A stretch of DNA of 64,000 bases from Bacillales bacterium. GTDB lineage: Bacteria; Bacillota_I; Bacilli_A; RF39; UBA660. Both the position numbers and the translations under genes were made by a program. Positions 11,262-64,000 of this stretch are shown here, in pieces. Numbering within the stretch: position 1 is the stretch's first letter; each line of letters opens with the position of its first letter. The notes below the pieces were generated by a model, which saw only the letters and a program-made list of their open reading frames with translations, made no database searches and was not told the DNA's origin. Location of the stretch: contig JAEELI010000005.1 in the NCBI GenBank assembly GCA_016288795.1, forward strand, positions 268-64,267, written 5' to 3'.

Positions 11262-11663
11262 TCATATTTTTTTCCTACGAAATATTACGCTAAAAATAAT
11301 TATTATTGACAGAAATACTCCAATAGAAAGGAATTGAATGTTTAAAATATTAGGATTATTATCCGAAAGTATTTCCAAAGATTTTTTGTAATTTTCAATA
11401 CCACTAGTTGCATTAGACATTTCTCTACTTACATAAAAAGTATATGTGTTACTCAAATTATTACTATTAAACACTTCAATACTAACTACACCGTTTTCAT
11501 TAGATAGGAAATTATCTCTTATATTAATAAAACATTCATCACAAATATGATATACAAAATCTAGATGATCAACACTTTCATCAACTTTTACTGTATATTC
11601 ATATGTAAGTTCATTGTATTCAAGTTCTAAATTACCATTCAATATTTCTAAATCTAATAACAT
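11262..11663 (-). CDS. hypothetical protein with a C-terminal TM anchor (133 aa)
   Basis: C-terminal IQFLSIGVFLSIIIIFSVIFRRKKI is a tail anchor. The N-terminal domain has an H..CDEC motif. Confidence 0.4.
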   Translation of the reverse strand: MLLDLEILNGNLELEYNELTYEYTVKVDESVDHLDFVYHICDECFINIRDNFLSNENGVVSIEVFNSNNLSNTYTFYVSREMSNATSGIENYKKSLEILSDNNPNILNIQFLSIGVFLSIIIIFSVIFRRKKI

Positions 11664-12952: not shown

Positions 12953-13573
12953 TTAATTTAATAAACTATTCAGTTCTTTTAACGCTTTTAAAAATTCTTC
13001 CTCTTTTTGATAACTAATAACCTTAGCATTACTACTAGGATATTCTTCTCCAGTTTTATTTTCTAAATCATTCAAGTCAATTTTCTTAACTATTAAGTCA
13101 TCTATAACTTCTTCTTTTTCATAATTTATTGCATACTTATTCTTTTTATTAAGAAGTTCATCATAACTAATGATTGCCTTCTCTTCTTGATCTTTTTCGT
13201 ATTCAGTAAATGTTATTCTTTCATTATCTTCATTATTTTTAATCTTTTCTTCTAAGGACTTTAAGTCTAGAAGCGGAGCTTCTTCATCATCATATTTCTC
13301 TTCTGTATTTTCAGTCATTTCACTAACTATAGGACTATTATCCTCAGGAATTATTTTTATTAGACTATCTTCTTTCTTTTCGTTTTTCAAAGGTTTATCT
13401 GGAAACAGATCTCGTTCACCTAAAACATCATTATTAATCTTTATAAAGTATATTAAAGTAATTATTAAAATCATTAAAATAACTACAGCCACTAAAAAAA
13501 CTAAATCAACTACACTTAAGTATTTGAAAAAAACTACAACATCATTAAAGAAATTCATACTAGTAATAGCCAT
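12953..13573 (-). CDS. hypothetical membrane-anchored acidic protein
   Basis: Two N-terminal hydrophobic segments followed by a Glu/Asp/Lys-rich region. The first two in-frame codons are GTG; an ATG at 13573 follows a GGTGA RBS. Confidence 0.45.
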   Translation of the reverse strand: MAITSMNFFNDVVVFFKYLSVVDLVFLVAVVILMILIITLIYFIKINNDVLGERDLFPDKPLKNEKKEDSLIKIIPEDNSPIVSEMTENTEEKYDDEEAPLLDLKSLEEKIKNNEDNERITFTEYEKDQEEKAIISYDELLNKKNKYAINYEKEEVIDDLIVKKIDLNDLENKTGEEYPSSNAKVISYQKEEEFLKALKELNSLLN

Positions 13574-13595
13574 AATTATCACCACAATTGTATTT

Positions 13596-13704: not shown

Positions 13705-14943
13705 CTATTCTACAATTGTCCAAGGATTATTTATAGTTCCATCCCCAGTCATTTCTATATTCTTCTTTAGATTTATAACCGGTCTAACTCCTCGATTTAA
13801 GTTACCTACTATATGGGTTTCCAAACTACCATCAGTATTAACCATGAACAATGTTAAACTACCTTCTGACCCACTATGTGCAGTCATAGTGACCCAAGGA
13901 TTTGCTAAATCACTATTATATAAATAAAATGCTTTATTACTATTTTTAGTATTGGCTCCAGCGAGAATAACTTCATCTATGCTTAGCAATCCAATTGCAC
14001 TTCTAACTTGAGTCCCAGCACAACTTAAAGCTGGAATATTATTAACTAGTATTCTTGTATTTGCGTGGAAAGTCCAATCCTCATCATGACCTATATCATT
14101 ACAAAACTTTGCGCTAGCTATATAATCTGTTAAATCACCTAAGTTATCATTTAACCATGACAACAAAAACGAATGTATATTGCTAGATTTATAGTCCATA
14201 TTTTTATTTTCATCTGTCCAATAACTAGCTATACTACTAGTCTCGCCATCAAGAATTAATCTAACTGAACCATCGCCATTAATTCTAACTATTCGCCATA
14301 GCATATCGCCAAAAGAGACATAATTATTTTCAACTTTACCCCGGAAATAATATGATGGCCCAACATCATCTACGTCCTTTATTAATCCTTCATCTTCGAA
14401 AGCCAAATCTATTCCAACTTTAGTTGTCGGAGCACTTTTAACTTTATTATTCTGTAATATAGTATCTGCAAATGTATTTAATTTCTCTTCAGTATTTCTT
14501 ATACCTAAAGTGCCCTTAATATTACTATCAGTATATACTTCTAAAGAATACGTTTTTGATTCAGATGCATCAATACTAAGATAATCAGTTAATATTTCAT
14601 CTGCAGGTTTTAAATCTCCTTCAGTAACTACAGTATTATTATATAGAAGTTTATAAGACCCCTTGCCTCTAACTTTGCTAAAAAGGAATCGATAATACTT
14701 AACACTATTATCACTATTTGTAATAGATATCTTTAGGGCTCTATTACTATTAAGATTGAAGCGTTTTCCATCTAAATAATTTATGGACAAATACCCATCT
14801 GCATCAATTGCTGAGTCGCCAAATACCGAATCCTTAAACTTGTAATATAATGAGCCCAAAACTACTGCTAAAGCCAAAACTAAAGCAATCATAAATAAAA
14901 TTATTTTATATATAAAACGCATTTTTAATTTAACTAACGTCAT
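13705..14943 (-). CDS. hypothetical secreted protein with an N-terminal signal-anchor (412 aa)
   Basis: N-terminal IYKIILFMIALVLALAVVLGSLYY is a TM segment. The ectodomain contains LWRIVRINGDGSVRLILDG. No family assignment. Confidence 0.55.
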   Translation of the reverse strand: MTLVKLKMRFIYKIILFMIALVLALAVVLGSLYYKFKDSVFGDSAIDADGYLSINYLDGKRFNLNSNRALKISITNSDNSVKYYRFLFSKVRGKGSYKLLYNNTVVTEGDLKPADEILTDYLSIDASESKTYSLEVYTDSNIKGTLGIRNTEEKLNTFADTILQNNKVKSAPTTKVGIDLAFEDEGLIKDVDDVGPSYYFRGKVENNYVSFGDMLWRIVRINGDGSVRLILDGETSSIASYWTDENKNMDYKSSNIHSFLLSWLNDNLGDLTDYIASAKFCNDIGHDEDWTFHANTRILVNNIPALSCAGTQVRSAIGLLSIDEVILAGANTKNSNKAFYLYNSDLANPWVTMTAHSGSEGSLTLFMVNTDGSLETHIVGNLNRGVRPVINLKKNIEMTGDGTINNPWTIVE

Positions 14944-22757: not shown

Positions 22758-22858
22758 AAAAATCATCTCCAAACTTATTATCTTATAAAACGCCAAAAAT
22801 ATCAATCTACTACTATAGATTTGTTAAAAATTATGATATTATTAATATGGTGATGATT

Positions 22859-23941
22859 ATGTGTGAATCATATGTATACTTAAGAATATTATTAATAGTA
22901 GTTAATATATTTAAAATAGTATGTATAGTCGCTCCTCTACTAATAATAGTTATGGGAATAATCGATTTTTCCAAGGCAGTTACAAATAGTGGCGCAGATC
23001 TTGGTAAAGTAGTTGGAACATTTCTTAAAAGAGTTATAGCCGGAATAGTTATATTTATTCTTCCTTCTACTATATCAGCTTTATTTAATGGTATAGGTAA
23101 TTACAATTCAGATATTTTCTTTGTTTCTTGTAAGGATAATTTAGAAGATATTGATATATACAAAGAAGCTTATGAGAAAAGGAAAAGGGAACAATTAGCA
23201 GAAACAGAAAAAGAAATTGCTAAAGAAATAAAAAGAATTAGAAAAGAAGAAGAAAAAAGGAAATCTGAAGAAACTCCATATTTTATTAAAGGTAATAGCA
23301 ATAAAGTTAAACCAACCGTGGTTCCACCTCCTGATGATATTCCTTCAACTGGAGATAGAAGATATCCAACTATAACTCAAAGAAACTATGGTCATATAAA
23401 ATTTTGTGGTAACGGCAAAACCGTTAAGTCTTCTGGATGTGGTGCTATTGCATATGCTACTATAGCTTGGGCGTTTAATCCTAGCCTTTTCAGTTCAGAA
23501 GAAGATGCAATAGAAGATGTTGCAAATTATATGTGTAGCACATACCATAGTGGCGGAGCTTTAAGTGCTGCTGCTTACTCACCTACTGCTGCATTCGGAA
23601 AAGCCTTATCCGAAAGATATCACATCACTTCTAGTGGCAATTTACTTCACACTTCTGGATATACTAGATGGAATGATTCATGGGAACAATTAATATTAAA
23701 TAAAACTAACAATGGATATGGAGTAATAATACTAATATCTGGACATTATATAGTTGTTCATAGTTCTAGCCAATGTGGAAGCAATAAAGTATATGTTAAA
23801 TATGCTGGTGCCATAGAAAATAAAACATCTGATTCATGTTATACAATAAAGGGTTTGTATGATAAAACATACAATTATAGAAATAGATGTAATGAAGTTC
23901 ATAAATGCGGCTGGAATGGCGCTTGGGCATTTAGAGGTTAG
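22859..23941 (+). CDS. membrane-tethered protein with a C-terminal papain-fold (peptidase C39-like) domain
   Basis: Two N-terminal TM helices, a KE-rich coiled linker (KEAYEKRKREQLAETEKEIAKEIKRIRKEEEKRK), and a C-terminal domain with SSGCGAIAYATIAWAF (CG.A..A Cys motif) and GHYIVVHS (His motif). The start is the third ATG, which follows GGTGA. Confidence 0.55.
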   Translation: MCESYVYLRILLIVVNIFKIVCIVAPLLIIVMGIIDFSKAVTNSGADLGKVVGTFLKRVIAGIVIFILPSTISALFNGIGNYNSDIFFVSCKDNLEDIDIYKEAYEKRKREQLAETEKEIAKEIKRIRKEEEKRKSEETPYFIKGNSNKVKPTVVPPPDDIPSTGDRRYPTITQRNYGHIKFCGNGKTVKSSGCGAIAYATIAWAFNPSLFSSEEDAIEDVANYMCSTYHSGGALSAAAYSPTAAFGKALSERYHITSSGNLLHTSGYTRWNDSWEQLILNKTNNGYGVIILISGHYIVVHSSSQCGSNKVYVKYAGAIENKTSDSCYTIKGLYDKTYNYRNRCNEVHKCGWNGAWAFRG

Positions 23942-23953
23942 AAAGGATTTGTT

Positions 23954-24685
23954 ATGAAGAAAATTATATTTGGACTATTAATAATTCCTCTTATAGTAAT
24001 AAAAGCCTATGCTATTGAAATTTATGATGAAAATACTGTTTACTATAAACTAGATATTAATAAATCATTTAAAGAAAAAATAGTTATATCTTATCCTCAA
24101 ACAATAGAAGAAGATATTGAAGAATTAAGAGAAGATGAAGATTGGGCTCCAATGACAATGAGTGAAATGTTTTATTATGAAGACATTGAACCATTAATAA
24201 ATAATCATGACATCTTCTATGATAAAAAAATTGATAAAGGTTATCCAACAACAGTTACTTTAACATATGAATATTTAGATGATAATTTTGTCAATGGTTA
24301 CTTTATTAATAATTGCTTTGAAGAATATGAAGTAGCTAGTTTATCAAATGAATATTACATAGATTTATCAGGAAACTTTGAATGTTATAATGATAAACCT
24401 ATAAAAATAAGTGTCAAAACAAATTATGATGTAATTGAAACTACTGGTAATCATAAAAAAAATGAGATTACTTGGACAATTGATGATAACAATTATAAAA
24501 ATACAAACATATTTTTAAGATTAGCAAAAAATCAAGAAGATACAAGCTCTAATACAAAAACTAGCATAGTCTCTTCAATATTCAAAATGATTATTCCAAT
24601 AATAATTATTGTTCTATGTGTTGTATTACTAGTTAATAAAAATAAGTTAGTAGAATTTATAAATAAAAAAAGGAATCAATTCTAA
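23954..24685 (+). CDS. hypothetical type-I membrane or secreted protein
   Basis: Cleavable signal (LLIIPLIVIKAYA|IEIY) and a C-terminal TM anchor (MIIPIIIIVLCVVLLV). AAAGGA RBS. Probably co-transcribed with the upstream + strand gene. Confidence 0.55.
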   Translation: MKKIIFGLLIIPLIVIKAYAIEIYDENTVYYKLDINKSFKEKIVISYPQTIEEDIEELREDEDWAPMTMSEMFYYEDIEPLINNHDIFYDKKIDKGYPTTVTLTYEYLDDNFVNGYFINNCFEEYEVASLSNEYYIDLSGNFECYNDKPIKISVKTNYDVIETTGNHKKNEITWTIDDNNYKNTNIFLRLAKNQEDTSSNTKTSIVSSIFKMIIPIIIIVLCVVLLVNKNKLVEFINKKRNQF

Positions 24686-25792: not shown

Positions 25793-26731
25793 TTACCTTG
25801 TATAGCCATTATTATTCTTTGCGTATTGTGAATGATAATCTGCTAAAGCTGTATATAAAGTTCTAAGATCAGGTGTTAATAATACAGGCATTGCACTAGC
25901 ATTAGTATCTTGAGTTTTTCCTCTATCTTCATTTTCAAAATATTTTGTTACTTTTTTAGAATATTCAGATCTATTAGCGTTAAATAAATTACATACTCTA
26001 TCTTGGGTTAATGCATATTTAACTTGATTTTTAATCATTTCCTCTAAATCCTCAGGGCTAATTGCTTCTCTTCTCTCTGAATATGTTGAAGGATTTCTCC
26101 TTTTTATAATTTCTGCAGCCTTTTTATCAGAAATACTATCTTTTAAATACTTTCTAACTTCTTTATCCTTAGTTGCATAGTAATCACTTATCCAAGCAAT
26201 TATACCAGCCTTAGCAATTTCTTGGTCAGTAGTGTCATTATTATATAGATAATGCAAACTGCTATAATCGCTTCCTTTTGATGATAACTCTTTAACCAAT
26301 GCATCCTCATCAATTTTAAATAATTCTGCAATAGTAGCTGGTTTAGCTCTATAAGTTAACATTAGATGTCTTAAATAATAAAATTGCTTTTTTTCATCAC
26401 TTGCTAACCACTCAACTTTTAATTGTGGAACTGTTCCAATTTCCTCTCCGTTTGAACGACGTAAATTCATAACCGATCTTATTCCTCCTAATCTTTTTCC
26501 GTTCTCTAAATTCTCTTTTCTCTTTTTAATAATTTCATCATATAATTTTTCGCCACTATATGGAAATGCGGCATATATTCTTTCACGATCTGTTAATCTT
26601 CTTTGAACAGTTGAAGAAGATATACCTGTTCGATTAGATAATTCAATATCTGATTCATTGAATTCTAAAAACAAATTAACTAAAAGAATTGTCTCTTTAA
26701 TAATTCTTTCTTCTTGTTCACGACTAACCAT
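25793..26731 (-). CDS. hypothetical protein with an N-terminal SpoIIID-like HTH
   Basis: [20 protein letters not shown] resembles the SpoIIID/sigma-70 region-4 HTH. The likely ATG at 26731 (8-nt spacer after AAGGAG) overlaps the lepA stop, so the gene is translationally coupled. Confidence 0.5.
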
Positions 26732-28526
26732 TTTCATCACTCCTTAATATACTTAAGAATGCTTCACTTGGAACTTCAACTCTTCCAACCATCTTCATTC
26801 TCTTTTTTCCTTCTTTTTGTGCCTCTAATAGTTTCCTTTTTCTAGAAACATCACCACCATAACATTTAGCAAGCACATTTTTTCGCATTGCTGAAACGTC
26901 TTCTCTGGCTATTATTTTCGAACCGACACTAGCTTGGATACTAACTTGAAACATTTGTCTCGGAATAACTTTTCTTAATTTTTCAGTAATACTTCTTCCT
27001 TTTTCATATGCTTCATCTTTATGAACTATTAATGATAATGCATCTACTTTTTCGCCATTTAGTAAAATATCCATTTTTACTAAGTTCGATTCTTTATAAC
27101 CTATTATATCATAATCAAAAGATGCATAGCCATTAGTTCTACTTTTTAGTTTATCATAAAAATCATAAACTATTTCCCCAAGGGGCAATTCATAATGGAT
27201 ATTAACTCTATCTTCATTAATATACTCTACCTCTTTATATATACCTCTTTTATTTTGACACAATTCCATAATTGCCCCAATGTATGATGCAGGAGCAATA
27301 ATATTAGTATAAATATATGGTTCCTTAATATATGATAATCTTTCTCTTGGAGGCATTTTATTTGGATTATCGACTAATTCCATTGTCCCATCAGTTAAAT
27401 ATGCTTCATATAAAACTGTTGGACTTGTAACAACAATATCCAAATTAAATTCTCTTTCCAATCTAGTTGTAATTATTTCTGAATGTAATAGTCCTAAAAA
27501 GCCAGTATGAAACCCAAAGCCTAAGGCCTCACTAGTTACAGGTTCAAATACTAAAGATGCATCATTTAATTTTAATTTATTTAAAGCATCTCTTAGGCCC
27601 TCATATTTATTTGATTCAATGGGATATATACCAGAATAAACCATCGGTTTCATTGGTTTATATCCTTCAAGGGGAATAGTTGCTTCATTATCTAAAATAG
27701 TTATTGTGTCTCCAACATGGACACTAGATATATCCTTAATGGCAGCACAAATAAATCCTACTTCCCCACTAGTTAATTCATCTAATAAAACTTCCTTAGG
27801 AGTTTTAACTCCCAACTCTATAACTTCAAATATCTTATCCGAATTAAACATTTTAATTTTATCTTTAATAGATATTTTACCATCTACAACTTTAACTAAT
27901 AATACTACTCCTTTATAACTATCAAAATAAGAATCATATATTAAAGCTCTAGTTGGTTTTTCCACATCTATTTTAGGAGCAGGTATTTTTTCAATTACTC
28001 TATCTAATAATTGTTGAACTCCTTCTCCAGTTTTACCACTGCAAAGAATTATATCTTCTTTTTTAAATCCTAATATACTTTCTAATTCCTTAGTTACCTT
28101 AGGAATATCCGCATTAGGTAAATCTATTTTATTAATTACAGGTATAATCTCTAATTCGTTTTCCATTGCTAAATATAAATTAGCTAAAGTTTGTGCTTCA
28201 ATGCCTTGAGCAGCATCAACAACAAGTATTGCACCTTCACAAGCCGCTAAGCTTCTTGAAACCTCATATGAAAAGTCAACATGACCCGGAGTATCTATTA
28301 AATTTAATATATAATCTTCACCATGATAATTATAATTAAGCTTAACCGTATTTAATTTAATGGTTATTCCTCTTTCTCTTTCGATATCCATATTGTCTAA
28401 TAGTTGCTCTTTCATTTCTCTTTTTGAAACAGCTCCGGTTATTTCCAATATTCTATCTGCAAGAGTGCTTTTACCATGATCAATATGAGCGATTATAGAA
28501 AAATTTCGAATGTTATTTTCGTTCAT
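26724..28526 (-). CDS. lepA: elongation factor 4 (LepA)
   Basis: [26 protein letters not shown]1 motif, DTPGHVDF, and the LepA-specific C-terminal domain. The start was placed at the internal ATG at 28526. Confidence 0.92.
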
Positions 28527-28660: not shown

Positions 28661-28685
28661 TTTAATAGCTTGAGAGGGGATGCGT

Positions 28686-29474
28686 ATGTATAGATTAAGT
28701 TTATATAATCCAAGAAATAATTCTTACAAAATAATTTCTGGGTGGGAATTACATGCATCAATGGGTTATTTTCCAGAAGAAGCTGCATATATTGGTGATT
28801 CCACTTTAAAAGATATTGTTAGTTTCACTTCTCTTTTTGAGAATGAATCAGACTTAAAAAACACTTTACTAGATGCTGGTTTTATATCTGAACAAGATTT
28901 AGATAGCAAATTTCTTATAATTAGAACTTCTAAAAATGGTAAAATTGTTAAAACTTTAAAAGAAGGTATATCTTACAAAAGAGATGCTCACCTATATGAC
29001 ATTAATGAATTAAAAAGACATGTTGTAGAAAGAATGGATAACCAAGAATTTATGACATCTTTTAGTTATAGTTTTTGTAATTACCTTAGAGATGTTAAAC
29101 ATATAAAAGACCAAGCAATATTTATCTATGACTATTATGTTAATAGAATAACTGAAACAAAAACTGAAGAAGAATTAGCTATTGAAATTAGGAGATTTAT
29201 TGATAAATATTGCACTAGAGAAAAATCTAAAGGTGTATATACAGAAGATTTTTATAAAGTTCGTCAAATGGCTATGTTTGTTGCTAAATATGAAGCTAGA
29301 GAAAGAGAACGTGAATTAAGGGAACAAAGAGGTCAAATTAATGATACTATTAAAGAAATTAAATATCTCGAAATGAGACTGGAATATTTAAAAGATCAAT
29401 TAGCACGTATTCCAAAATACTCTGAAGAATATCAAGCGTTTGAAAATGAAATAAATAGTATTATGAATAAATAG
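28686..29474 (+). CDS. hypothetical protein with a C-terminal coiled coil
   Basis: GAGGGG RBS with a 6-nt spacer before the second ATG. No motif recognised. It lies immediately upstream of def on the same strand. Confidence 0.5.
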   Translation: MYRLSLYNPRNNSYKIISGWELHASMGYFPEEAAYIGDSTLKDIVSFTSLFENESDLKNTLLDAGFISEQDLDSKFLIIRTSKNGKIVKTLKEGISYKRDAHLYDINELKRHVVERMDNQEFMTSFSYSFCNYLRDVKHIKDQAIFIYDYYVNRITETKTEEELAIEIRRFIDKYCTREKSKGVYTEDFYKVRQMAMFVAKYEARERERELREQRGQINDTIKEIKYLEMRLEYLKDQLARIPKYSEEYQAFENEINSIMNK

Positions 29475-39654: not shown

Positions 39655-40698
39655 TTAAGAAGGATCTTGACATAGAGTTATAATATTACTAATTCCACAA
39701 TATTCTGGATGATTACCGTCTCCACAACTCACATATCCAGTATCTTCTATACTACAATCCATACTTCCTATCCAACACCTTAAATAATTTGTTGTTGCAA
39801 ACGGATTTGACTGATACATTGAGTATTGGCAAGTAGCACCCAGTGCTTCCATTTCGGATTTGTAAGTTGATACATTACTCCATGTATTTGGCTCCATGCA
39901 ATATTCTGTTCCATTAAATACTCCACACACTTCATCATATACTCCGGGTACTCCATAACCCTTTAGATAATAATTTAATCCTGTAGGACTTGTTAATGGA
40001 TCCGAAATTCTATTGTTTGATGTCTTAGTTGTATCATACACATAATAATACGCTTGAGGTTCTTCAGCTATACTACAGCTGAAATTAGTTGCATTTATTG
40101 TTATGGTTATGTCTTTATTCTTTAGGGCACTTTGATCAATTGACATATAATTTTGCATTCTTATTCCAGCTGTTAGTTTTTTTGACCTGCTACTTGACAC
40201 TCCATACATTGACCCATTAATTGTTATTGGAAATAAGTTTGATACATTGAAGTCATAGTCTATTCTATTTATATTTAGGAGTATTTGGTTAGTTGATTTA
40301 CCACTCCATCCTTGAAATGCTGTATACAAGTTATTTGTTCCAGTGGCTGTTACATTTAATGTATAAGAACAATTAAAATATCCTTCTCCAGTTACATTTG
40401 TATGTGCTATAGGAATTACAGTTCCGTTTGTAGATGGGGTTCCATTTGTTGTTCCCCAATACAATATATTTGTACTTTTTTTCATCATGTCTCCAGCACT
40501 CAAATTAAGAGACAAAGTGCTGTTATCTCCAATTAATTGAACTGACCCAACATTCGGCGCTGATGCACTAATCGTCTTACTTCCAAAACTATTGGTTGAT
40601 GTCACACTAAAATATGCATATGATGCACCTATAACTAACACCAACAAAGTTAAGATTACAACTATCAAAGATATTATTGCTTTCTTTTTATTATCCAC
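39655..40698 (-). CDS. secreted protein with a SipW-cognate (TasA/camelysin-class) signal peptide and a cysteine-rich C-terminal domain (paralog 2)
   Basis: GTG start at 40698, 8 nt after GGAGG. MDNKKKAIISLIVVILTLLVLVIGASYAYFSVTSTNSFGSKTISASA is nearly identical to paralog 1 through NLYTAFQGW.GK and ALKNKDIT. The Cys-rich C-terminus has diverged. Confidence 0.6.
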   Translation of the reverse strand: MDNKKKAIISLIVVILTLLVLVIGASYAYFSVTSTNSFGSKTISASAPNVGSVQLIGDNSTLSLNLSAGDMMKKSTNILYWGTTNGTPSTNGTVIPIAHTNVTGEGYFNCSYTLNVTATGTNNLYTAFQGWSGKSTNQILLNINRIDYDFNVSNLFPITINGSMYGVSSSRSKKLTAGIRMQNYMSIDQSALKNKDITITINATNFSCSIAEEPQAYYYVYDTTKTSNNRISDPLTSPTGLNYYLKGYGVPGVYDEVCGVFNGTEYCMEPNTWSNVSTYKSEMEALGATCQYSMYQSNPFATTNYLRCWIGSMDCSIEDTGYVSCGDGNHPEYCGISNIITLCQDPS

Positions 40699-40747
40699 AA
40701 ATATAACCTCCACGTGTTTTGTGTTTTATGCTTTTAATATAATATAA

Positions 40748-40800: not shown

Positions 40801-40829
40801 AAAAAAAGACAATATGTTTATATTGTCTT
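40801..40829 (-). terminator. rho-independent terminator after the ABC transporter pair
   Basis: AAGACAATAT-gttt-ATATTGTCTT 10-bp stem (40806-40829) overlapping the stop codon, followed on the minus strand by TTTTTTTATATAA. Confidence 0.75.
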
Positions 40830-43254
40830 AATCAACATCAAATCTAGAAAGTATTTGAGCTGGAGTTTTTCTAATAGTTCTATATACCGGTAATAATCCT
40901 ACTACTAGATTAAATATAAATACTATAGTAATACTTAAAATTATTGTATACGGATTAACTATAAATAACTTGGCAACATACGGAACTTGTGTTATTGCAT
41001 TTAGAACATAAGACATAAATAATATTCCAGGAATACTTGCTATTGTGCTTATTGCAATTATCTCTCCAGAGAACATTTTATAAATATCAGTTTTCTTAAC
41101 ACCAATTGCTCTATATATACCTACTTCTTTAATTCTAGATAGGAATGAAGACCTAATCATTAGAAGTATTTCCACTAATGAGATAGCAATAATAATCCCT
41201 GATACGATTAATGAATTTACTACTCTATCATACCTATCATTTAAATATTTAGTTTTATCATAATCATATGATGAAAAAACATTAATTTTGCGATTATGTA
41301 AATAATCCATTACTTCTTGATCACTATCTTTAGTTTTAATTGTTAAATTATTTGCTTTTTTAATTAAACTATATTTAATTGTTTTTGGATTAGTTAAATA
41401 ATCTTTTATAAAGTCTCCTTTAATGTTTTGATAGTAACCAACAACTTTTAACTTCTTATTTATGGCTTCATACTTAATCTTCTTGTTTAATGGCATATCA
41501 TATTGATTATCAATATTTACGATTATTTCATAGTCATTCAAAGGTAATCTACCTTTTTTCAGTTTAACACTTGAATTCAATAGCAAATTATAGTCAACTA
41601 ATCTAGCGAAAGACTCATCTTCAAAAGTATCATCAAATGAGTTAGAAATAATGTTTAGGAAATCATCCCTATTGACATATATATTTGGAGCCTCTAGGGA
41701 AGAAATACCTACGATTGTAAATGGTTTCATATTACTTAATAGTATCTCATGATTCAAGAAATCATCCATAGATGTAAATCCTGCTTGACCACAATCAGTC
41801 CATTTTATTACATGATCAATAACAAACTTATCTAAAACAACTTCTTGAGAATTCTCAGGCATTTTTCCTTTAATAAGATCTTTACTAGTTATTGTTGTTA
41901 TATCAGAAATAGATGCCTCGATAATTCCAGTTCCATAAATAGTTTGTAAATACTTATCATACTTAAAGCCAAACTTTACCAAACTATTTCCGGGAATGAT
42001 AAAATCTATATTATCTAACTCTTCATATGCCAAATAGTCTTCTATAGAGGTTTTTTTGCTATTAACCGTCAAATAATCTCTATTCATTGTAATAAAGTCT
42101 TTATCTTCTATTTTTAATGTGGCTGTTATTGAAGAAACTCCATAAAATATAAACATACCTGATATAAAGAAACCACCTAGTAATATTTTCTTCAAAATTG
42201 GATAATCTAACAACTTTTTAAAACCGTAAGAAATAAATGATCCCAATCTAAAGATTGAACTATATTTGAGTTTGGTATTTGATGAAACTCCTTCGATATC
42301 AAAAGTTTTTTCATCTAAGTTAATATGTTTAATCTCTTTATAATGGTCATCTATTAATTCAATATTAGAGTTATTCTCTATTATTTCAACTTTAGAACCA
42401 TCTTCTGTCTTAATATATATATTTCCATTTTTTAAAACTATTTTGATATTAACATCCTCATGATTATTTCTATAGATATCTAACTTAATATTATCTTCTT
42501 TTATTGTATTAATATCTTTATAGTCCTTCAAATAAATTCTATTTTCAAACTCGTATTTTAGTGCATCAGTATTCTTATTTTCATAATCATTAATAATTAC
42601 TCCATCTTGTAATTCAACTATCCTATCTGCATAGAATCTTGCCAATTCTTCTTCGTGAGTTACAAGTAGGACTAAGTATTTCGAAGAAATACTCTTAAGT
42701 ATATTCATAACTTCAATACTATTTGCACTATCTAAGTTTCCTGTAGGTTCATCACATATTAATAATTTAGGGTTTTTAACTAATGCTCTAGCAATACCTA
42801 CTCTTTGTCTTTCACCACCAGAAAGCATTCCAACTGGACGATTTTTGTATCGCTCCATTTTAACTTTCTCTAAGGTATACATTACTCTTTTTTTAATTTC
42901 TTCTTTATCTTTTATTCCCAATATTTTTAAAGATAAAGCGACATTATCAAAAACAGACATTCCTTCCACTAATTTATAGTCTTGAAAAATATAGCCAATA
43001 TTTAAGTTACGTATTTCATCAACCTTTCTTGATCTTCTCTTTGCTATTTTCTTTCCATTAATGAATATAGAACCACTATTTAGTTTATCTAACCCCCCTA
43101 TTGCATTTAACATGGTTGTTTTACCACATCCAGAAGGCCCTAAAATAGCTACCAGTCCTGAATCGGGAAAAGTTATACTAGCGTTATTGATAACATGAAT
43201 TTCATTCCTTTTATGTCTATTAAAATATTTATTTGCACTCTTTAACTCTATCAT
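40828..43254 (-). CDS. fused ABC transporter ATP-binding/permease protein (MacB/FtsX-type, 808 aa)
   Basis: N-terminal NBD with Walker A (GPSGCGKTT), LSGGERQRV and Walker B (LLICDEPT). One TM, a large extracytoplasmic domain, then a C-terminal three-TM FtsX-like bundle. Confidence 0.8.
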   Translation of the reverse strand: MIELKSANKYFNRHKRNEIHVINNASITFPDSGLVAILGPSGCGKTTMLNAIGGLDKLNSGSIFINGKKIAKRRSRKVDEIRNLNIGYIFQDYKLVEGMSVFDNVALSLKILGIKDKEEIKKRVMYTLEKVKMERYKNRPVGMLSGGERQRVGIARALVKNPKLLICDEPTGNLDSANSIEVMNILKSISSKYLVLLVTHEEELARFYADRIVELQDGVIINDYENKNTDALKYEFENRIYLKDYKDINTIKEDNIKLDIYRNNHEDVNIKIVLKNGNIYIKTEDGSKVEIIENNSNIELIDDHYKEIKHINLDEKTFDIEGVSSNTKLKYSSIFRLGSFISYGFKKLLDYPILKKILLGGFFISGMFIFYGVSSITATLKIEDKDFITMNRDYLTVNSKKTSIEDYLAYEELDNIDFIIPGNSLVKFGFKYDKYLQTIYGTGIIEASISDITTITSKDLIKGKMPENSQEVVLDKFVIDHVIKWTDCGQAGFTSMDDFLNHEILLSNMKPFTIVGISSLEAPNIYVNRDDFLNIISNSFDDTFEDESFARLVDYNLLLNSSVKLKKGRLPLNDYEIIVNIDNQYDMPLNKKIKYEAINKKLKVVGYYQNIKGDFIKDYLTNPKTIKYSLIKKANNLTIKTKDSDQEVMDYLHNRKINVFSSYDYDKTKYLNDRYDRVVNSLIVSGIIIAISLVEILLMIRSSFLSRIKEVGIYRAIGVKKTDIYKMFSGEIIAISTIASIPGILFMSYVLNAITQVPYVAKLFIVNPYTIILSITIVFIFNLVVGLLPVYRTIRKTPAQILSRFDVD

Positions 43255-43256
43255 AA

Positions 43257-45443
43257 CTATATCCTTTCTCCATATGTTTTAATAATTGATTCTTTAAATA
43301 TTTTTCTTCCATATCTATAAGCTATCAAAACAGACATAGCAAGTAAAATTATGAAAACAACTAAATAACCCCAGCCATTAACATATTTAATCACAGTTGT
43401 GAACAATTTTGTTTTAATTACCTCTTTACTAATTAAATAAATGAATAACATGAAAATGACATATGAGAATGTTGCAAGACATAATAATTCTCTCATCAAA
43501 ATATTTACACATACCTTTTTAGTGCTTCCTAAACTTCTTAGGGTTGTATAGTAACTATTACGAGATTTATAAATGACTTTAATTATAAAGTAAGATATAA
43601 AGAATAATGCTACTATTAAAATAACACTAACAACCAATCTAAATATTTTAAACATTTGAGTAACCTCTTCTGCACCATTACGATTGGCATCTTTTAATTT
43701 TAATGTTTCATAACCCAAATCATGTAACTCTTTACATACACTATCTAAATCTTTTATTTCTTTGACAAATACACTACCTTGGTAATCTCCATGATTAAAT
43801 AAATAATTATAATCTTCTTTATTAATAAATATTTGATAATATAAATCATCATAGTTTAGTCCTAATAGTTTTTTTGTGTTGTTTTTATTATATATTTTTG
43901 TTATTTTATACTCTATTTTTTCTTCATAGTAATTATTCTTAACATTTACCTTTAATTGCTTTTTTAAACAATTATAGTTTGGACAATAGTTATTTAAATA
44001 ATCAGGAATATATATTTCACCTTTAGGAACTTTATCACTGAATTTTAAGTATAGCATTTGTCCTTTTTCATTAAAATAATTATTATTTAAAATAAATTCT
44101 TGTTTAGTTGCATCATTATATGACATTAATGATAAATCAGACATTAGATTAGGACTTAGTATAAAACTAAAATTATAATCATAGTAAACAGATTCTTTAA
44201 AGACAATTCCAACTATTGTTACTTTTTTATTAATTATATCTAATGTGAATTCTCTATTAATTAAGTCATCTTGTCTCTCTTTTAAAACCCAATTGTTTTT
44301 ATCACCTTTAATTACCACTTCATCATCATTTTCAGGTAATCTACCAATTGAAACTTTTTCTTTTTTAAATTGAATTAGACCATCAAATTGTAAATCATCT
44401 CTACTAAAAGAAATCCACATTTCATTAAGTAAATCCTTATTGGTAGCAAAGTCTACTCCCTCAATTTTATTGATACTATCAATATCTGCATCCGTTACTA
44501 TACTTTTATCTGATTTATTAATCACAATTCTCTTTTCACTATAATTATAAAAATAATTATTATAACTAGTCATCGATTCTTCATTTTCAAGTTCTTTTAA
44601 AGCAGCATAAGTAGATAATAACGCTATAGTAATTAGCAAGAATATTACAAACATTAAAATAAACTTAACTGGTAAATTAAAAGCATTTCTAATTCCTAAT
44701 CTTATTTTGCTCCTAATTGTAATATCTTTTACTTCATTAGGTTTAGCCTCATCATCTAAATTCACATGATTAAGAACTTTATTTTCTAATATCTTTCCAT
44801 CATGCATTCTAATTAATCTAGTTGCATATTCTTCAATTTCTTTTTTATTATGGGTAACAACTATAACTAATTTATCTTTAGATATTTCAGCTAATAATTT
44901 TAATATCTCTTTTGATGCTTTACTATCCAATGCTCCAGTTGGTTCATCGGCAACAATAATTGGAGTTCCATTGGCTAAAGCTCTAGCAATAGCAACTCTT
45001 TGCTTTTGCCCTCCAGATAATTTAGACACTTTAGTTTTTCTATATTTCTCTAATCCAACTTTAGCAATTAATTCATTAATATACTTTTTTACTTCTTTTC
45101 TGTTATGACCATTCATCAACATTGCTAATTCAATATTTTCATAAACAGTATAACTATTAACTAAATTAAAATTTTGAAAAATATTACTTACATATTTTCT
45201 ACGATATTCTAAGTAATCTTCTTCTGTATAATGGCTAGTTTCCTCACCATTAATAAACATCTCTCCATCTTCATAAGTATCCAATCCAGATAAAACATTT
45301 AAAAGAGTTGATTTACCACTTCCTGATTCACCAGTGATAACAACAAACTCTCCCATGTGTAATTCTAGATTTACTTTCGAAAATCCTTCAGCAATTACTC
45401 CATCTTGATAGTAATATTTCGATACATTTTTTAACTTTAACAT
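43257..45443 (-). CDS. fused ABC transporter ATP-binding/permease protein (MacB/FtsX-type, 728 aa)
   Basis: NBD with GESGSGKST, LSGGQKQRV and IIVADEPT, and the same TM1-ectodomain-3TM topology as its downstream paralog. The 2-nt gap to the next gene implies co-transcription. Confidence 0.8.
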   Translation of the reverse strand: MLKLKNVSKYYYQDGVIAEGFSKVNLELHMGEFVVITGESGSGKSTLLNVLSGLDTYEDGEMFINGEETSHYTEEDYLEYRRKYVSNIFQNFNLVNSYTVYENIELAMLMNGHNRKEVKKYINELIAKVGLEKYRKTKVSKLSGGQKQRVAIARALANGTPIIVADEPTGALDSKASKEILKLLAEISKDKLVIVVTHNKKEIEEYATRLIRMHDGKILENKVLNHVNLDDEAKPNEVKDITIRSKIRLGIRNAFNLPVKFILMFVIFLLITIALLSTYAALKELENEESMTSYNNYFYNYSEKRIVINKSDKSIVTDADIDSINKIEGVDFATNKDLLNEMWISFSRDDLQFDGLIQFKKEKVSIGRLPENDDEVVIKGDKNNWVLKERQDDLINREFTLDIINKKVTIVGIVFKESVYYDYNFSFILSPNLMSDLSLMSYNDATKQEFILNNNYFNEKGQMLYLKFSDKVPKGEIYIPDYLNNYCPNYNCLKKQLKVNVKNNYYEEKIEYKITKIYNKNNTKKLLGLNYDDLYYQIFINKEDYNYLFNHGDYQGSVFVKEIKDLDSVCKELHDLGYETLKLKDANRNGAEEVTQMFKIFRLVVSVILIVALFFISYFIIKVIYKSRNSYYTTLRSLGSTKKVCVNILMRELLCLATFSYVIFMLFIYLISKEVIKTKLFTTVIKYVNGWGYLVVFIILLAMSVLIAYRYGRKIFKESIIKTYGERI

Positions 45444-45623: not shown

Positions 45624-45806
45624 GTGATTGTTATGCCTTTTAAAAGTAGTCCTACTATATTTGTTTTCTTAGCACTAGGTTTAAGTGTCTTAATATTTTA
45701 TCAGTTACTAATAACTTTTATTCTACCTTTTAGATATAATATTTTTATACTAACTATTGAAATCGTTTGCTTCATTATTTGTATTAGTAAAGTAATATGG
45801 AGATAA
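45624..45806 (+). CDS. possible small two-TM membrane peptide (60 aa)
   Basis: AGGTGA RBS 5 nt upstream of the ATG, in the 180-nt intergenic region after the ABC genes. Hydrophobic (FVFLALGLSVLIFYQLLITFILPF...CFIICI). It overlaps the 3' end of the convergent kinase gene, so it may be spurious. Confidence 0.25.
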   Translation: MIVMPFKSSPTIFVFLALGLSVLIFYQLLITFILPFRYNIFILTIEIVCFIICISKVIWR

Positions 45807-46634
45807 GAATTGTTCAGTTTTATATATGTAATCTAATTGCAAACGCATTTCTCTAGTGCATTCAAAATCATTATCTATAAACTTTATTTCCGGAACTAAA
45901 GATATAAGAATGAATAATAATTCTTCTTCCTCTTTAGATAGATTATTAATGCTTTTATATTTATTATATAAAGAAGAAAATTCTAATTCCCAATAACTAG
46001 ATTTATATAGTTTATATAAATCTAAGACCGGAGTATCAAACTTAGCCTTATCCCAGCTTATTAAACACTCTTTAGAGCCTTTTAAGTAATGATCTAAAGA
46101 CAAATTATTATGAACAAGACATATTCTTTCACTTTTTTTATCTTTAACTAAATCATACCAATTATCTAGTTTTCCGGATGCAAAATCTAAAGCAGAATTA
46201 ATTTTTGAATAATTCCTTGAGAATGCATATTCCTTTGGAGACATATACTCCCTAGTTAAGAATAGTTCATAATATTTTAAATAATAATCTTTTAAATATA
46301 ATATATTGTTTTTAATATCTTCGTATATTTCTCTATGCGTTTCCTCACTAACTTCTTTATTATATGAAGTTTTAGCATGTAAAAGTCCAACTACATTAAT
46401 TAAATCTTCTCCTTTATGAGGATTATAAATGGAACTATCTTCTATATATTCAAACATAATATTATTTCTATTATTAGAAATAATATTAGGATAATAATCA
46501 AAAGATCTAGATTTTAAATAATAAAATATATCATTTATTTTAGAATTATTAGTTGGTTTAACGACATAAGAACCATCTTCAGTTTCGATTAAAGAACATT
46601 TACCTTTAATAGTCCATTTATATTTTTTATTCAT
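45750..46634 (-). CDS. CotS/YsxE-like protein kinase-fold protein (aminoglycoside phosphotransferase superfamily)
   Basis: LVHNNLSLDHYL resembles the HGDxxxxN catalytic loop, and ISWDKAKFDTPVLDL the DFE/D activation motif. It lies immediately downstream of a SpoVID-like gene, as ysxE does after spoVID in B. subtilis. Confidence 0.5.
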   Translation of the reverse strand: MNKKYKWTIKGKCSLIETEDGSYVVKPTNNSKINDIFYYLKSRSFDYYPNIISNNRNNIMFEYIEDSSIYNPHKGEDLINVVGLLHAKTSYNKEVSEETHREIYEDIKNNILYLKDYYLKYYELFLTREYMSPKEYAFSRNYSKINSALDFASGKLDNWYDLVKDKKSERICLVHNNLSLDHYLKGSKECLISWDKAKFDTPVLDLYKLYKSSYWELEFSSLYNKYKSINNLSKEEEELLFILISLVPEIKFIDNDFECTREMRLQLDYIYKTEQFLSPYYFTNTNNEANDFNS

Positions 46635-61523: not shown

Positions 61524-61589
61524 TCCACATCACAAACATATTGTAACATTTATTACATAAAAAAGGAAGATTTAGAAAATCTTCCTTAA

Positions 61590-64000
61590 TTAATATGACC
61601 ATTCATATCCATCTATATTTTGTTGACGACAATAATAGTCTCCGCCAGAATACGTGCTATAACCTGATGGACAGCTTGAAGATCTACTATTACAACATAG
61701 TCCAGTTCCACTACATGTTATTGCATAATCATAATTTAGTTGATTACATTGTGCTACAGTTGGTGTTGAACCAGATGTGTTGTATTGCGTACAACTTGAA
61801 TAGTAATAACTACTTACATAGCAATATCCTCCACCAGCAGAATACTTCTTATATTTATAATCGTAAGAAGTGTTTGTAGTTCTTGTATATGTTCTTGAAT
61901 ACGATTTTGTCCTTCCAGCAGCATCTGAACATGTTCCTGATACTTTTGTACTTCCACTACCTAATGATACAGTTTTTCCTCCGGTTGGACTATTTGCATC
62001 ATTACATGTTACTGTAACATTTCTAGTAGATGAAGATGATGTTATAGGATTTCCACTAGGGCTCCAAGACACAGTAGGATCCGTTTTATCTAATCTACTA
62101 ATATAAGTCTTGTTGCTACTACAAACCGTAGTATCTAATGAGTTACATGCTCTAACATAGAATGTTCTTCCTGAAGTAGCAGTAGATATTGAAGCAGATG
62201 AACCAGTTATATCTGTTGAATCATCACTATTATATCTTATGTAAGTTACACTTCCTGGACCGGAAAGTGTGCTACCACTAAACGTTAAAGTATAGTTTGC
62301 TGTATGCCAGTTTCCACTTGTAATGCTATCACTAGCAGTAATCGTTGGCTGTGTTGGCGCCTGAATAACATTTACATTTGTAACGTGATATTCTGATCCA
62401 TTACTTAATTTAGTTCTACAGAAGGTTGTTCCGAGGGCTTTTCCAGTTATTGTAATTACCCATGCTCCCGATGAACCGCTTAAAACGCATGTTGCAATTG
62501 ATGAATCGTCTGATGTTGTTGTTAGTGAAGAACTAGTAGTTAACTCTATTGTTGTTGAAGCAGATTTTTTAATACTTCTAACCGCTATTGTAATACTTGC
62601 GGATTTATGATTTCCAGCTGCATCTTTGGCATGAACGTATTTTCTTCCGCTTCCTGCTGTATATGCCCATGTTACTTCCTTTGGAGATGTTGCAGTTATT
62701 TCTGTATACGAATCAGGTGTTGAAGATGTAGTGTTTGTAACATATCCTTTTACTTTTGAAGTTGCATCTGTCATTGTTGCTTTAACACTAGTCGCACTTA
62801 ATGCTGTTAAAATTACTGTCGGTGCTACTTCATCTTTTTTCATAACATAGGATGCTGCATCACTGCATGCATTTGTTGTATCTTTAGAGTTACATGCTTT
62901 GAAGTAATATGTAACACCATCAGTATCAACCGTTCTAGTTAATTCATTGTCATTTGTCAATGTTGAAGTATTACTACTCCACCAATAGTACTTAACTGTT
63001 CCAGAACTACCAGAAGGTAGAGTTGAACCACTAGCTGTTAATGTAGTATCTGCTGTATGCCAGCTACCTGAAGCACCACCATCACTAGCAGTAATTGTAG
63101 GTTTTGATGGGGCTCTAGCTGTTACAGTCCAATTACGAACATAGTATAAACCACCATCTGCTCTTGCAATTTTAATTGTCGCTGTTCCTGCAGCAACTGG
63201 ATGAAGAACAAATGTCCATGTTCCATCTGATTCAGATGCAGTACACGTTGCAACTGAAGTGTTAGTTGATGAACAAGACATTGTCGTCGTTACTGCTGAT
63301 GTTAAAGTAGTATCTCCTTCACCAAGATATACTGTTGAATTTATAACTTGAACTCTAGACAATGTTGAAGAACTTGTATTACCTGCTGCATCTTTAGCAT
63401 GAAAATAATTCCATCCACTTTCTGCAGTTGTTGCAGTAATTTTTTTTGATGATGTTGCAGTAAATGCTGTTCCCCAACTAGTTGGAGTATCAGACGATGT
63501 AGAATGAACATAATTTGTTACTCCTGAATGAGCATCTGTTATTGTTCCACCAATTTTATTGTTTGATTCATTATAAGTTAAAACCACTGCAGGTCTTGTA
63601 TTATCAACATACATCTCTTTACTTGTTAGTCCTGCATTTGCTGCGAGAGATGTTCCTGCAACATCACTTATTGCAGATTTATTACATACATAAATGCTAC
63701 CAGCACCAGAGCCAGAATCCTTTGTAACTGTTCCAGTTGCGGTTTTATTTCCTGATTGTCTTGTTAATGTGACAGTATCTGTCATGGCACTACATGCTAC
63801 TGAACTTGTTGACCATTTATAATAAACTGTATAAGATGCTGAACCTAATCCTGAGGTTGCATCTGACAAGGTTATCGTTGCAGTCTTAGATTTAGCGTAT
63901 GTTGTTCCACTTGGAACAGATACACTTAGTGCTGGTGGGGTTTGATCCATCTTTACTAAATAACTAGATTCACCGCTACAATTTTCAGAATCCAGTGAAT
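61590..64000 (-). CDS. large Ser/Thr-rich modular surface protein with a Cys/Tyr-rich C-terminal domain (N-terminus beyond the window edge)
   Basis: The frame is open from 61590 to the window end at 64000, with no stop upstream of the first ATG at 63950. Two module types alternate: A (D.T.P.V..., with a recurring HAKDAAGN) and B (P..PTITASD..SG.WHTA..TLT.SGSTL). The C-terminal roughly 90 aa are very rich in Cys and Tyr. Confidence 0.7.
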   Translation of the reverse strand, partial: SLDSENCSGESSYLVKMDQTPPALSVSVPSGTTYAKSKTATITLSDATSGLGSASYTVYYKWSTSSVACSAMTDTVTLTRQSGNKTATGTVTKDSGSGAGSIYVCNKSAISDVAGTSLAANAGLTSKEMYVDNTRPAVVLTYNESNNKIGGTITDAHSGVTNYVHSTSSDTPTSWGTAFTATSSKKITATTAESGWNYFHAKDAAGNTSSSTLSRVQVINSTVYLGEGDTTLTSAVTTTMSCSSTNTSVATCTASESDGTWTFVLHPVAAGTATIKIARADGGLYYVRNWTVTARAPSKPTITASDGGASGSWHTADTTLTASGSTLPSGSSGTVKYYWWSSNTSTLTNDNELTRTVDTDGVTYYFKACNSKDTTNACSDAASYVMKKDEVAPTVILTALSATSVKATMTDATSKVKGYVTNTTSSTPDSYTEITATSPKEVTWAYTAGSGRKYVHAKDAAGNHKSASITIAVRSIKKSASTTIELTTSSSLTTTSDDSSIATCVLSGSSGAWVITITGKALGTTFCRTKLSNGSEYHVTNVNVIQAPTQPTITASDSITSGNWHTANYTLTFSGSTLSGPGSVTYIRYNSDDSTDITGSSASISTATSGRTFYVRACNSLDTTVCSSNKTYISRLDKTDPTVSWSPSGNPITSSSSTRNVTVTCNDANSPTGGKTVSLGSGSTKVSGTCSDAAGRTKSYSRTYTRTTNTSYDYKYKKYSAGGGYCYVSSYYYSSCTQYNTSGSTPTVAQCNQLNYDYAITCSGTGLCCNSRSSSCPSGYSTYSGGDYYCRQQNIDGYEWSY

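Follow-up and report, generated by a model that had tools for sequence, protein, structure and literature searches.

A Probable Tandem-Immunoglobulin Fibrillar Surface Protein of an Uncultured Gut Firmicute, from a Family in Which Giant Modular Type IV Pilins Predominate

Introduction

The fibrillar adhesins of Gram-positive bacteria consist of a stalk of tandem immunoglobulin-like (Ig-like) domains and a tip domain, with, in classical examples, the adhesive domain at the N-terminus and an LPXTG/sortase anchor at the C-terminus. Here we describe a protein that recalls them in outline, encoded on the reverse strand at the very end of a 64,000-nucleotide stretch of contig JAEELI010000005.1 (the window), which derives from an uncultured gut Firmicute. 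The gene, hereafter the target, occupies positions 61590-64000 and runs off the edge of the stretch.

Two other groups of exported proteins bear on its interpretation. Modular type IV pilins, such as PilB and PilC of Streptococcus sanguinis, were surveyed by Raynaud et al. in 2021 (PMC8179133); the filament presumably presents their grafted modules. TasA, camelysin and BsaA are SipW-dependent fibre subunits that assemble by donor-strand exchange (PMC9674648, PMC11580942). Secretion of the bsa operon products of C. perfringens is reported to depend partly on type IV pilins and on genes associated with the type IV pilus (PMC11580942).

The target is a tandem-Ig fibrillar surface protein of a known kind, and its family is dominated by giant modular type IV pilins. 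We consider it probable that the visible 802 residues are the C-terminal part of a much larger extracellular fibrillar protein, in which an Ig-like rod ending in a Cys-rich knob is tethered at the N-terminus and bears an adhesive tip.

Results

Extent and Composition of the Target

The frame 61590-63998 on the reverse (-) strand is stop-free for 802 residues and, by translation, closes with TAA at 61590-61592, the protein ending ...CRQQNIDGYEWSY*. No in-frame stop codon lies upstream before the window edge, and the first 17 visible residues (..NCSGESSYLVKMD; ..NCSGESSYLVK(M)D) fit xCSxxxxYxxKLD, the consensus for the end of the B modules described below. The gene therefore runs past the window, with another B module next upstream (B0, residues 1-17, 63948-64000), and the first-pass annotation was right to call the frame open at the window edge. 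The ATG at 63950 (M17), the start given in the list of open reading frames (ORFs), was considered as the true start and rejected, the 16 codons upstream of it encoding the B-module end.

Serine and threonine together make up 34% of the visible protein (17.3% Thr, 16.8% Ser). Neither an LPXTG motif anywhere in the ORF nor a hydrophobic C-terminus was seen. Directly past the stop codon, on the same strand, stands a terminator-like hairpin (61563-61587) with an 11-bp stem followed by a T run, one site being found where shuffled sequences give an expectation of 0.2. Composition, repeats and predicted Ig/FN3-like folds (FN3, fibronectin type III) all support the earlier description of a giant, modular, Ser/Thr-rich exported protein.

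Repeat Architecture

The visible modules follow the order B0(end)-A1-A2-X1-B1-A3-X2-B2-A4-tail. A super-repeat of ~255 residues occurs twice (residues 132-391 and 389-639; 41% identity over 261 residues, E 3e-42), a protein-level similarity far above chance, and its unit is A-X-B, three modules rather than two. Alternation of A and B modules had been proposed from the sequence alone; the repeats are real, but the two-module unit is not, an X module between A and B having been overlooked. At the DNA level the repetition survives as direct repeats of 35-87 nt, 71-78% identical and spaced 747-768 nt apart (for example 62274-62360 and 63027-63113), in agreement with the period of about 760 nt noted before. 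Tandem Repeats Finder returned nothing relevant on the DNA, because the units are too diverged and too long.

The modules were compared with one another and with hidden Markov models (HMMs) built locally in one iteration over the relatives described below, which we designate by P-numbers (relatives from homology searches) and L-numbers (loci from a scan of species-representative genomes). All coordinates given here are on the reverse strand. A1 (residues 18-132, 63603-63947) is a longer beta-sandwich-type module of a subtype other than A2 and A3; the repeats of P0003 resemble it at 39% identity (E 2e-16), and many relatives match the region around it (query residues 10-150). A2 (residues 133-219, 63342-63602; DNTRPAVV...FHAKDAAGN; family HMM E 3e-23) and A3 (residues 389-473, 62580-62834; DEVAPTVI...VHAKDAAGN; also matched by the HMM) are 50% identical to each other (E 3e-17) and form the sole demonstrably homologous pair of A modules. 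A4, the pre-tail module (residues 638-720, 61839-62087; DKTDPTVSW...TVTCNDANSPTGGKTV...SGTCSDAAGRTKSY), has its counterpart at the equivalent position in P0004 and P0012 (E 9e-8), with the motif TVTC.DA.SPTGG.T...SGTCSDAA. Neither A1 nor A4 is significantly similar to A2 or A3 (E 0.014-0.23); what they have in common is a D-x-T-x-P linker. Thus, while all the motifs listed at first pass are present (DQTPPALSV, DNTRPAVVL, DEVAPTVIL, DKTDPTVSW, two copies of HAKDAAGN and two of P..PTITASD..SG.WHTA..TLT.SGSTL), the grouping of four A modules holds for A2 and A3 and fails for A1 and A4.

The X modules, X1 (residues 220-295, 63114-63341) and X2 (residues 474-546, 62361-62579), are ~75 residues long, lie between A and B and carry a Cys pair. 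They are related in direct comparison (E 1e-6) and match the family HMM at E 1e-28 to 1e-30 (8e-30 for X1). B1 (residues 296-388, 62835-63113; PSKPTITASD..SGSWHTA..TLTASGS...YYFKACN...C; HMM E 3e-29) and B2 (residues 547-637, 62088-62360; likewise matched by the HMM) are 47% identical (E 3e-21). Their consensus is P-x-x-P-T-I-T-A-S-D..SG.WH..TLT.SGS...YY.KAC....C..Y..KLD, with P, D, S, WH, T, SG, Y, Y, C, C, Y and D invariant. Across the family, 259 copies of B are found in 90 proteins and 249 copies of A in 98, as against only 12 copies of X in 4. The last module is followed by the Cys/Tyr-rich tail (residues 721-802, 61593-61838), to which we return below.

Predicted Folds and Database Matches

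An AlphaFold2 model of residues 389-802 (A3-X2-B2-A4-tail), computed from a 74-row alignment of module homologues, has a mean pLDDT (predicted local distance difference test score) of 80. The three modules A3, X2 and B2 exceed 90 (88-95 in A3, 95-98 in X2, 96-98 in B2), A4 ranges from 64 to 93, and each of the four is all-beta; confidence drops below 50 in the last 92 residues. A Foldseek comparison with the PDB gave 220 matches at E <= 1e-3, led by tandem Ig/FN3 arrays. The best of them, at E 5e-8 to 1e-5, are the Ig-FN3 region of NCAM2, titin, fibronectin, the grappling-hook protein GhpA and two surface-layer (S-layer) proteins, SbsB and SbsC. The predicted structures, proposed at first pass as a check on the modules, point to a generic tandem Ig/FN3 array of consecutive beta-sandwich domains of ~75-115 residues each.

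Searches at the sequence level gave little. The target has no match in Pfam or NCBIfam at E <= 1 and no relative among PDB sequences; in particular, it is not matched by Pfam Ig_7 (PF19081) or Big_2-type models. The B modules of P0001 do pass the Ig_7 cut-off, if barely (30.3 bits against 27.3), so the B module is at best a remote relative of Ig_7. Within the visible 802 residues there is no match to the TasA/camelysin profiles (PF12389, TIGR04088), nor to the Pfam models of the wall-binding domains SLH, CWB and LysM.

A Small Family, Most Often Headed by Prepilin Leaders

Of 1.84 billion cluster representatives searched exhaustively with HMMER, 156 proved related at E <= 1e-3, most of them from uncultured Bacilli and Firmicutes of the gut. 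A word-indexed search found three relatives with the target and one match with the B-module profile, and protein-pattern scans of genome and metagenome contig collections with the target yielded no relative or other copy. The clusters that we looked up are all singletons or nearly so. The family is uncharacterised, rare and fast-evolving. Near relatives run to 1,400-2,500 residues. P0004 (2472 aa, E 3e-174) and P0012 (1427 aa) stand nearest to the target and have its (A-X)n-B pattern, a module like A4 and an end rich in Cys. Both come from a single Spo0A-encoding metagenome-assembled genome (MAG; GCA_016648615.1), where they lie amid housekeeping genes.

We sorted the N-termini of 151 relatives by regular expression. 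The canonical type IV prepilin leader G-F-T-L-x-E heads 65 of them and a G-Y-M-L-x-E variant seven more (at least 72/151 with a prepilin leader); ~8 have a pilin-like KGFAVS/GFISTT form without Glu5, seven (P0063, P0094, P0010, P0039, P0048, P0089 and P0045) have a SipW/TasA-like signal, and the remainder are fragments or have other N-termini. The domain that follows the N-terminus of P0004 and P0012 weakly resembles that of the GFISTT group. The leader models TIGR02532 and PF07963 match P0001, P0002 and P0060 above curated cut-offs. P0001 joins a bona fide prepilin leader to B modules, a pre-tail module and a Cys-rich end, and leader-bearing relatives reach 1,500-1,700 residues (P0038, P0041, P0052, P0065). 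Judging from these sequences, the carrier in this family appears most often to be a prepilin leader with its pilin domain, making these proteins giant modular pilins, and less often a TasA/SipW-type domain or a plain anchor.

When the B-module alignment was run against species-representative genomes, nine loci emerged, all of 25-30% GC, in gut MAGs of uncultured Bacilli, Erysipelotrichaceae and Firmicutes (human Hadza, rabbit, rumen) and on three short contigs binned as Muribaculaceae. Every full-length gene at these loci starts with a prepilin leader.

Two features of the pilin-like relatives were noted in passing. P0005, P0007 and P0008 (1,934-1,983 aa), together with P0096, P0124, P0135 and P0144, begin NNKGFAVS(V/I)ILY..., which resembles a prepilin cleavage site but has no Glu5, and contain up to 16 B modules; this start may represent a distinct class of pilin-like leader. 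In MAGs of uncultured Bacilli/Erysipelotrichaceae, large prepilin-leader genes (600-1,140 aa) also occur as tandem pairs: at L005 (8252-11647 and 12358-14391), flanked by a glycolytic/Spo0A cluster and by ribosomal protein genes and away from any pilus-assembly genes; at L007 (1361-3379 and 5019-8429); and at L008 (6939-8756 and 8801-10351). The neighbourhood of P0004 (PGK/Spo0A/iPGM) is similar to that of L005.

Is the target itself a giant modular type IV pilin, with a class III signal cut by a PilD-type peptidase and display on a filament, probably at its tip? The concept of modular pilins is established (PMC8179133), the leader is the commonest N-terminus of the relatives and the only one among full-length genes at the MAG loci, and P0001 has the same layout of B modules, pre-tail module and Cys-rich end behind it. 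Nonetheless, the two closest relatives lack G-F-T-L-x-E, no type IV pilus genes were found in the window, and the polymerisation into filaments of proteins of at least 1,500 residues is hypothetical. The proteins that carry X modules, moreover, have three kinds of N-terminus: plain in P0004 and P0012, SipW-like in P0094 and prepilin in P0060 (whose X-like region aligns with the X module of P0094, though the X HMM did not register it). No confident extrapolation to the target can be made from such a mixture, and we regard a pilin identity for it as possible but doubtful. By our judgement, which is not a measurement, a plain anchor like that of P0004 has close to an even chance of being the target's N-terminus; a prepilin leader is a distinctly weaker candidate, and a SipW-type signal is unlikely.

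The Cys/Tyr-Rich Tail

As first described, the end of the target is dense in Cys and Tyr: 8 Cys and 14 Tyr fall within its final 82 residues, while Cys elsewhere in the protein amounts to 1.8%. The first-pass annotation went further and saw in this tail a hint of a C-terminal anchoring or cross-linking module common to two 'TasA-like' paralogs encoded elsewhere in the window on the same strand, suggesting that all three proteins carry a SipW-type signal. Paralog 1 lies at 39655-40713 (its start is probably the GTG at 40698, five codons in) and paralog 2 at 30093-31172. Alignment of the two gives 36% identity (E 1.5e-60), and each has 8 Cys in its last ~110 residues.

Some observations speak for the idea. 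Each of the three tails has exactly 8 Cys and is rich in Tyr, the paralogs carry the SipW-like signal VGA(T/S)YAYFS, and the seven relatives with SipW-like N-termini listed above combine them with B modules. The resemblance of the tails, however, is one of composition only. The target tail matches the paralog tails at no better than E 0.27 in BLASTP and not at all in phmmer. In Smith-Waterman comparisons against 1000 composition-preserving shuffles it scores z -0.95 and 1.25 with the two paralog tails, whereas these score 5.3 with each other. An HMM of the paralog tail (11 members; hmmsearch --max, E <= 10) recovers the paralogs (3e-51 and 4.5e-31) and not the target. The Cys spacings are unlike as well, C-9-C-14-C-10-C-5-CC-6-C-13-C in the target and C-8-C-21/22-C... 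in the paralogs. A module shared by the three proteins is thereby refuted at the sequence level.

Nor does the tail look like a conserved anchor, which would not be expected to vary as this one does. The target tail is hypervariable, even among close relatives; neither P0004 nor P0012 has a tail significantly similar to it (z ~1.2). At the same time, 65/151 relatives have at least six Cys in their last 100 residues, where Cys averages 5.0% against 1.7% elsewhere, so that Cys-rich ends are a habit of the target family. C-terminal anchoring is unlikely: the tail varies, no LPXTG or hydrophobic end is present, and complete relatives have their hydrophobic anchor element at the N-terminus. This argues for a distal, exposed knob, with anchoring more likely N-terminal than C-terminal. 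Given in addition that SipW-like signals occur in a small minority of relatives (7/151), we think it very improbable that the target is a third protein with the paralogs' tail and signal.

Shared Stalk Modules on Unrelated Carriers

The paralogs themselves belong to a family of 51 matches. About half are stand-alone proteins of ~210 residues, comprising the signal and a beta-sandwich with two invariant Cys; other members add an 8-Cys module, LRR_5, DUF285, Flg_new or a B module. The 8-Cys module forming the paralog tail is conserved, all 11 carriers having exactly 8 Cys and the pattern VCG.F.G.E.C...(M/L)E(A/S)LG..C. By analogy with modular pilins, the family looks like a carrier-plus-cargo system. 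The name 'TasA-like' derives from the signal peptide only: PF12389 scores 17.5 and 13.0 bits on the paralogs against a cut-off of 22.5, over the signal alone, and TIGR04088 scores 10.5 against 19. A PDB profile search gave no match for the paralogs. Their AlphaFold model consists of a helix (residues 3-25), a beta-sandwich (residues 29-211, pLDDT >90) and a Cys domain (pLDDT ~70), and Foldseek found nothing for it in the PDB at E < 1e-3, with the TasA-like archaeal pilin AbpA ranking 11th (E 0.098).

A link between the target and the paralog family does exist, at a different level from the one first supposed. The shared tail has fallen away; what stands is that building blocks of both are combined in other proteins and that Cys-rich knobs recur in both families. 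P0063 joins an N-domain of the paralog type (E 1e-34 to 1e-41 against the paralogs) to a B module of the target family. P0094 (residues 224-545) and P0060 (residues 351-671), both from NCBI MAG contigs, have in common a C-terminal stretch of 323 residues at 63% identity, built of an X-like module, a B module, a pre-tail module and a Cys tail. Their N-termini are unrelated, that of P0094 being SipW/TasA-like (with a weak TasA match over the signal) and that of P0060 a prepilin leader with a pilin domain. Such identity behind different N-termini indicates that the same stalk-and-knob cassettes sit on different carriers. In other genomes, then, the stalk modules of the target are fused to pilin or to TasA-like carriers, a real link to the paralog family, and this exchange of N-domains in front of the same stalk and knob seems to us the most interesting by-product of the analysis.

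Directly upstream of paralog 1 and on the same strand lie two adjacent genes (40828-43254 and 43257-45443) for MacB-like fusions of an ABC ATPase with an FtsX-type permease (808 and 728 aa). It is possible that this pair exports or processes the paralog.

Genomic Context

The host is a walled monoderm, an uncultured Bacilli-type Firmicute of animal guts with a low GC content (27%); that it is walled follows from the presence of MurB, MurG, FtsQ and MltG in the window. The genes around the target all have housekeeping roles: MnmA, a Polysacc_synt/MurJ-type flippase, a ComN-like regulator, RelA, Dtd, IreB, RuvX, MltG, an O-methyltransferase, U32 peptidases, GreA, trigger factor, Lon, MutS, SMC, RNase III, LepA, HrcA-GrpE-DnaJ, MurB, MurG and FtsQ; a 608-aa ORF between GrpE and DnaJ occupies the position of DnaK. 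P0001, like the target, is found upstream of IreB-RuvX-DUF1292-MltG-methyltransferase. We give this synteny little weight, since the shared housekeeping proteins are just 39-47% identical and the cluster is widely conserved, and positional orthology of the two genes, once considered, was dropped.

Base composition sets the region 62001-64000 apart. It has 37% GC and a skew of about 0, compared with ~27% GC and a skew of about -0.3 in the remaining window, where genes lie on the same strand; the coding of a Ser/Thr/Gly/Ala-rich protein probably accounts for the GC excess of the target gene.

Several other ORFs deserve mention. A 364-aa ORF at 22847-23941 (+) has membrane segments at its N-terminal end, a stretch rich in Lys and Glu, and Cys in its C-terminal domain; it matches nothing in Pfam and, in NCBIfam, gives a weak match (E 0.003, far below cut-off) to the Mycoplasma conjugal-transfer family MMCAP2_0566. 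Amid the housekeeping genes are eleven ORFs of 133-586 aa without a Pfam match at the thresholds used (1253-1861, 4037-5116, 5759-7519, 10349-11236, 11262-11663, 12953-13585, 13705-14943, 23954-24685, 25793-26740, 28680-29474 and 45750-46634). At the window start, adjoining the EF-Ts and S2 genes, a tyrosine recombinase (324-1238, (-); Phage_integrase with a SAM-like N-terminal domain) is probably XerC/D rather than a prophage integrase.

Discussion

On the reading that we prefer, the visible rod would comprise eight tandem beta-sandwich (Ig/FN3-like) domains, namely A1, two copies of A-X-B and A4, followed by the 82-residue knob with its 8 Cys. The absent N-terminus would direct export and then tether the protein, through a hydrophobic helix, to the membrane or to a filament. 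The rod would project outward by tens of nanometres, and the hypervariable, probably disulfide-bonded knob would serve as a distal, ligand-contacting adhesin tip. The architecture, predicted folds, family and relatives' N-termini come from the analysis itself; we infer that the N-terminus is anchored and the C-terminus distal, that the knob is disulfide-bonded and that it is adhesive.

Several observations weigh against this picture. The target's own N-terminus lies outside the window, which the source contig (64,846 bp) exceeds by only 846 bp, and its mode of export and anchoring is extrapolated from relatives. The two closest of these, P0004 and P0012, start MKKKKKYIIFFLLLVEITS..., a plain hydrophobic stretch in which neither a prepilin nor a SipW motif is recognisable. 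No type IV pilus machinery, prepilin peptidase, SipW or sortase was found among the Pfam-scanned ORFs of the window, and no pilus machinery, prepilin peptidase or SipW gene was found adjoining the relatives examined. The tail matches nothing significantly and contains no identifiable ligand-binding domain, and its predicted structure, with pLDDT below 50, is unreliable.

Two further explanations fare worse than those already weighed. An S-layer or wall-associated sheet protein, lying flat instead of projecting as a fibril, would account for the Foldseek matches to SbsB and SbsC, which are likewise built of tandem Ig-like domains. Those matches are generic to tandem-Ig proteins, however (TM scores, a measure of fold similarity, of 0.17-0.28), and no SLH, CWB or LysM domain, nor any other Pfam match, occurs in the visible part. 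The relatives, for their part, have pilin or transmembrane N-termini, and a rare, hypervariable family is unlike an abundant S-layer protein, so that we find a sheet protein highly improbable. A receptor-binding or fibre protein of a phage or mobile element lodged in the chromosome would fit the hypervariable tip and the atypical GC content and skew, but we give it hardly any credence, as the flanks are all housekeeping (MnmA, RelA, Dtd, IreB, RuvX, MltG) with no phage genes adjacent, the relatives too lie amid housekeeping genes and bear pilin leaders, and the amino acid composition explains the GC excess.

An N-terminally tethered fibrillar protein, our preferred reading, may also be placed in a broader scheme, which we put forward tentatively. 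There may be, in these uncultured gut Bacilli, one toolkit of Ig-like stalks and Cys-rich knobs set on interchangeable carriers (type IV pilin, pilin-like without E5, TasA/SipW-type beta-sandwich, or plain anchor), for which type IV filaments and TasA-like fibres would be equivalent scaffolds. The paralogs would then be modular subunits of TasA-like fibres, the counterpart of modular pilins, and the target would be among the largest cargos.

Taken alone, the target is one more giant tandem-Ig surface protein, and as such unsurprising. Its three repeat modules and tail, however, are without a model in Pfam, NCBIfam or the PDB, and its family is small and restricted to the gut (156 members among 1.84 billion). 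Most of the complete members are type IV pilins far above the catalogued sizes of modular pilins, which raises the question of whether they are polymerised or whether the pilin helix serves merely as a membrane anchor. The occurrence of the same stalk and knob behind a pilin or a TasA-like N-domain offers a testable case of two unrelated fibre systems being interchangeable for adhesin display in uncultured gut Firmicutes.

How, then, does the target compare with described systems? It shares with the fibrillar adhesins of Gram-positive bacteria a beta-sandwich rod, richness in Ser and Thr, large size and a distinct terminal domain. It differs in having no LPXTG motif, in an anchor that is apparently N-terminal, in the C-terminal position of its distinctive end domain and in repeats that match no Pfam model. 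GhpA of Aureispira and SbsB/SbsC likewise string Ig-like domains into long chains (Foldseek E 5e-8 to 1e-6). With 12-15% identity and TM scores of 0.17-0.28, the likeness is one common to tandem Ig arrays, and these proteins belong to unrelated organisms and secretion systems.

The likeness to the TasA family lies in the paralogs and in seven relatives of the target, where a hydrophobic segment is followed by G-x-T/S-x-A-Y/F-F/W, and in the paralogs' N-domain, a beta-sandwich of ~185 residues. Against this, the profile matches of the paralogs are below cut-off and confined to the signal, their fold has no significant match, there is no SipW gene in the window, and the visible part of the target has no TasA-like region. 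The bsa case in C. perfringens, a precedent for cross-talk between SipW/TasA-like and type IV pilin systems, recalls what we see here.

Modular pilins provide a parallel for the family as a whole. Differences are evident: the genes of the relatives are not beside pilus machinery, the target's closest relatives are without the leader motif, and a very long rod, made of Ig-like modules that are not catalogued, forms the cargo together with a Cys-rich knob. The sizes differ too, the most extreme multi-domain pilin in the survey having 860 residues (PMC8179133) and the leader-bearing relatives here 1,500-1,700. The plan is nonetheless the same, for most of the complete relatives consist of a short prepilin leader and a pilin module followed by grafted non-pilin modules, that is, of carrier and cargo.

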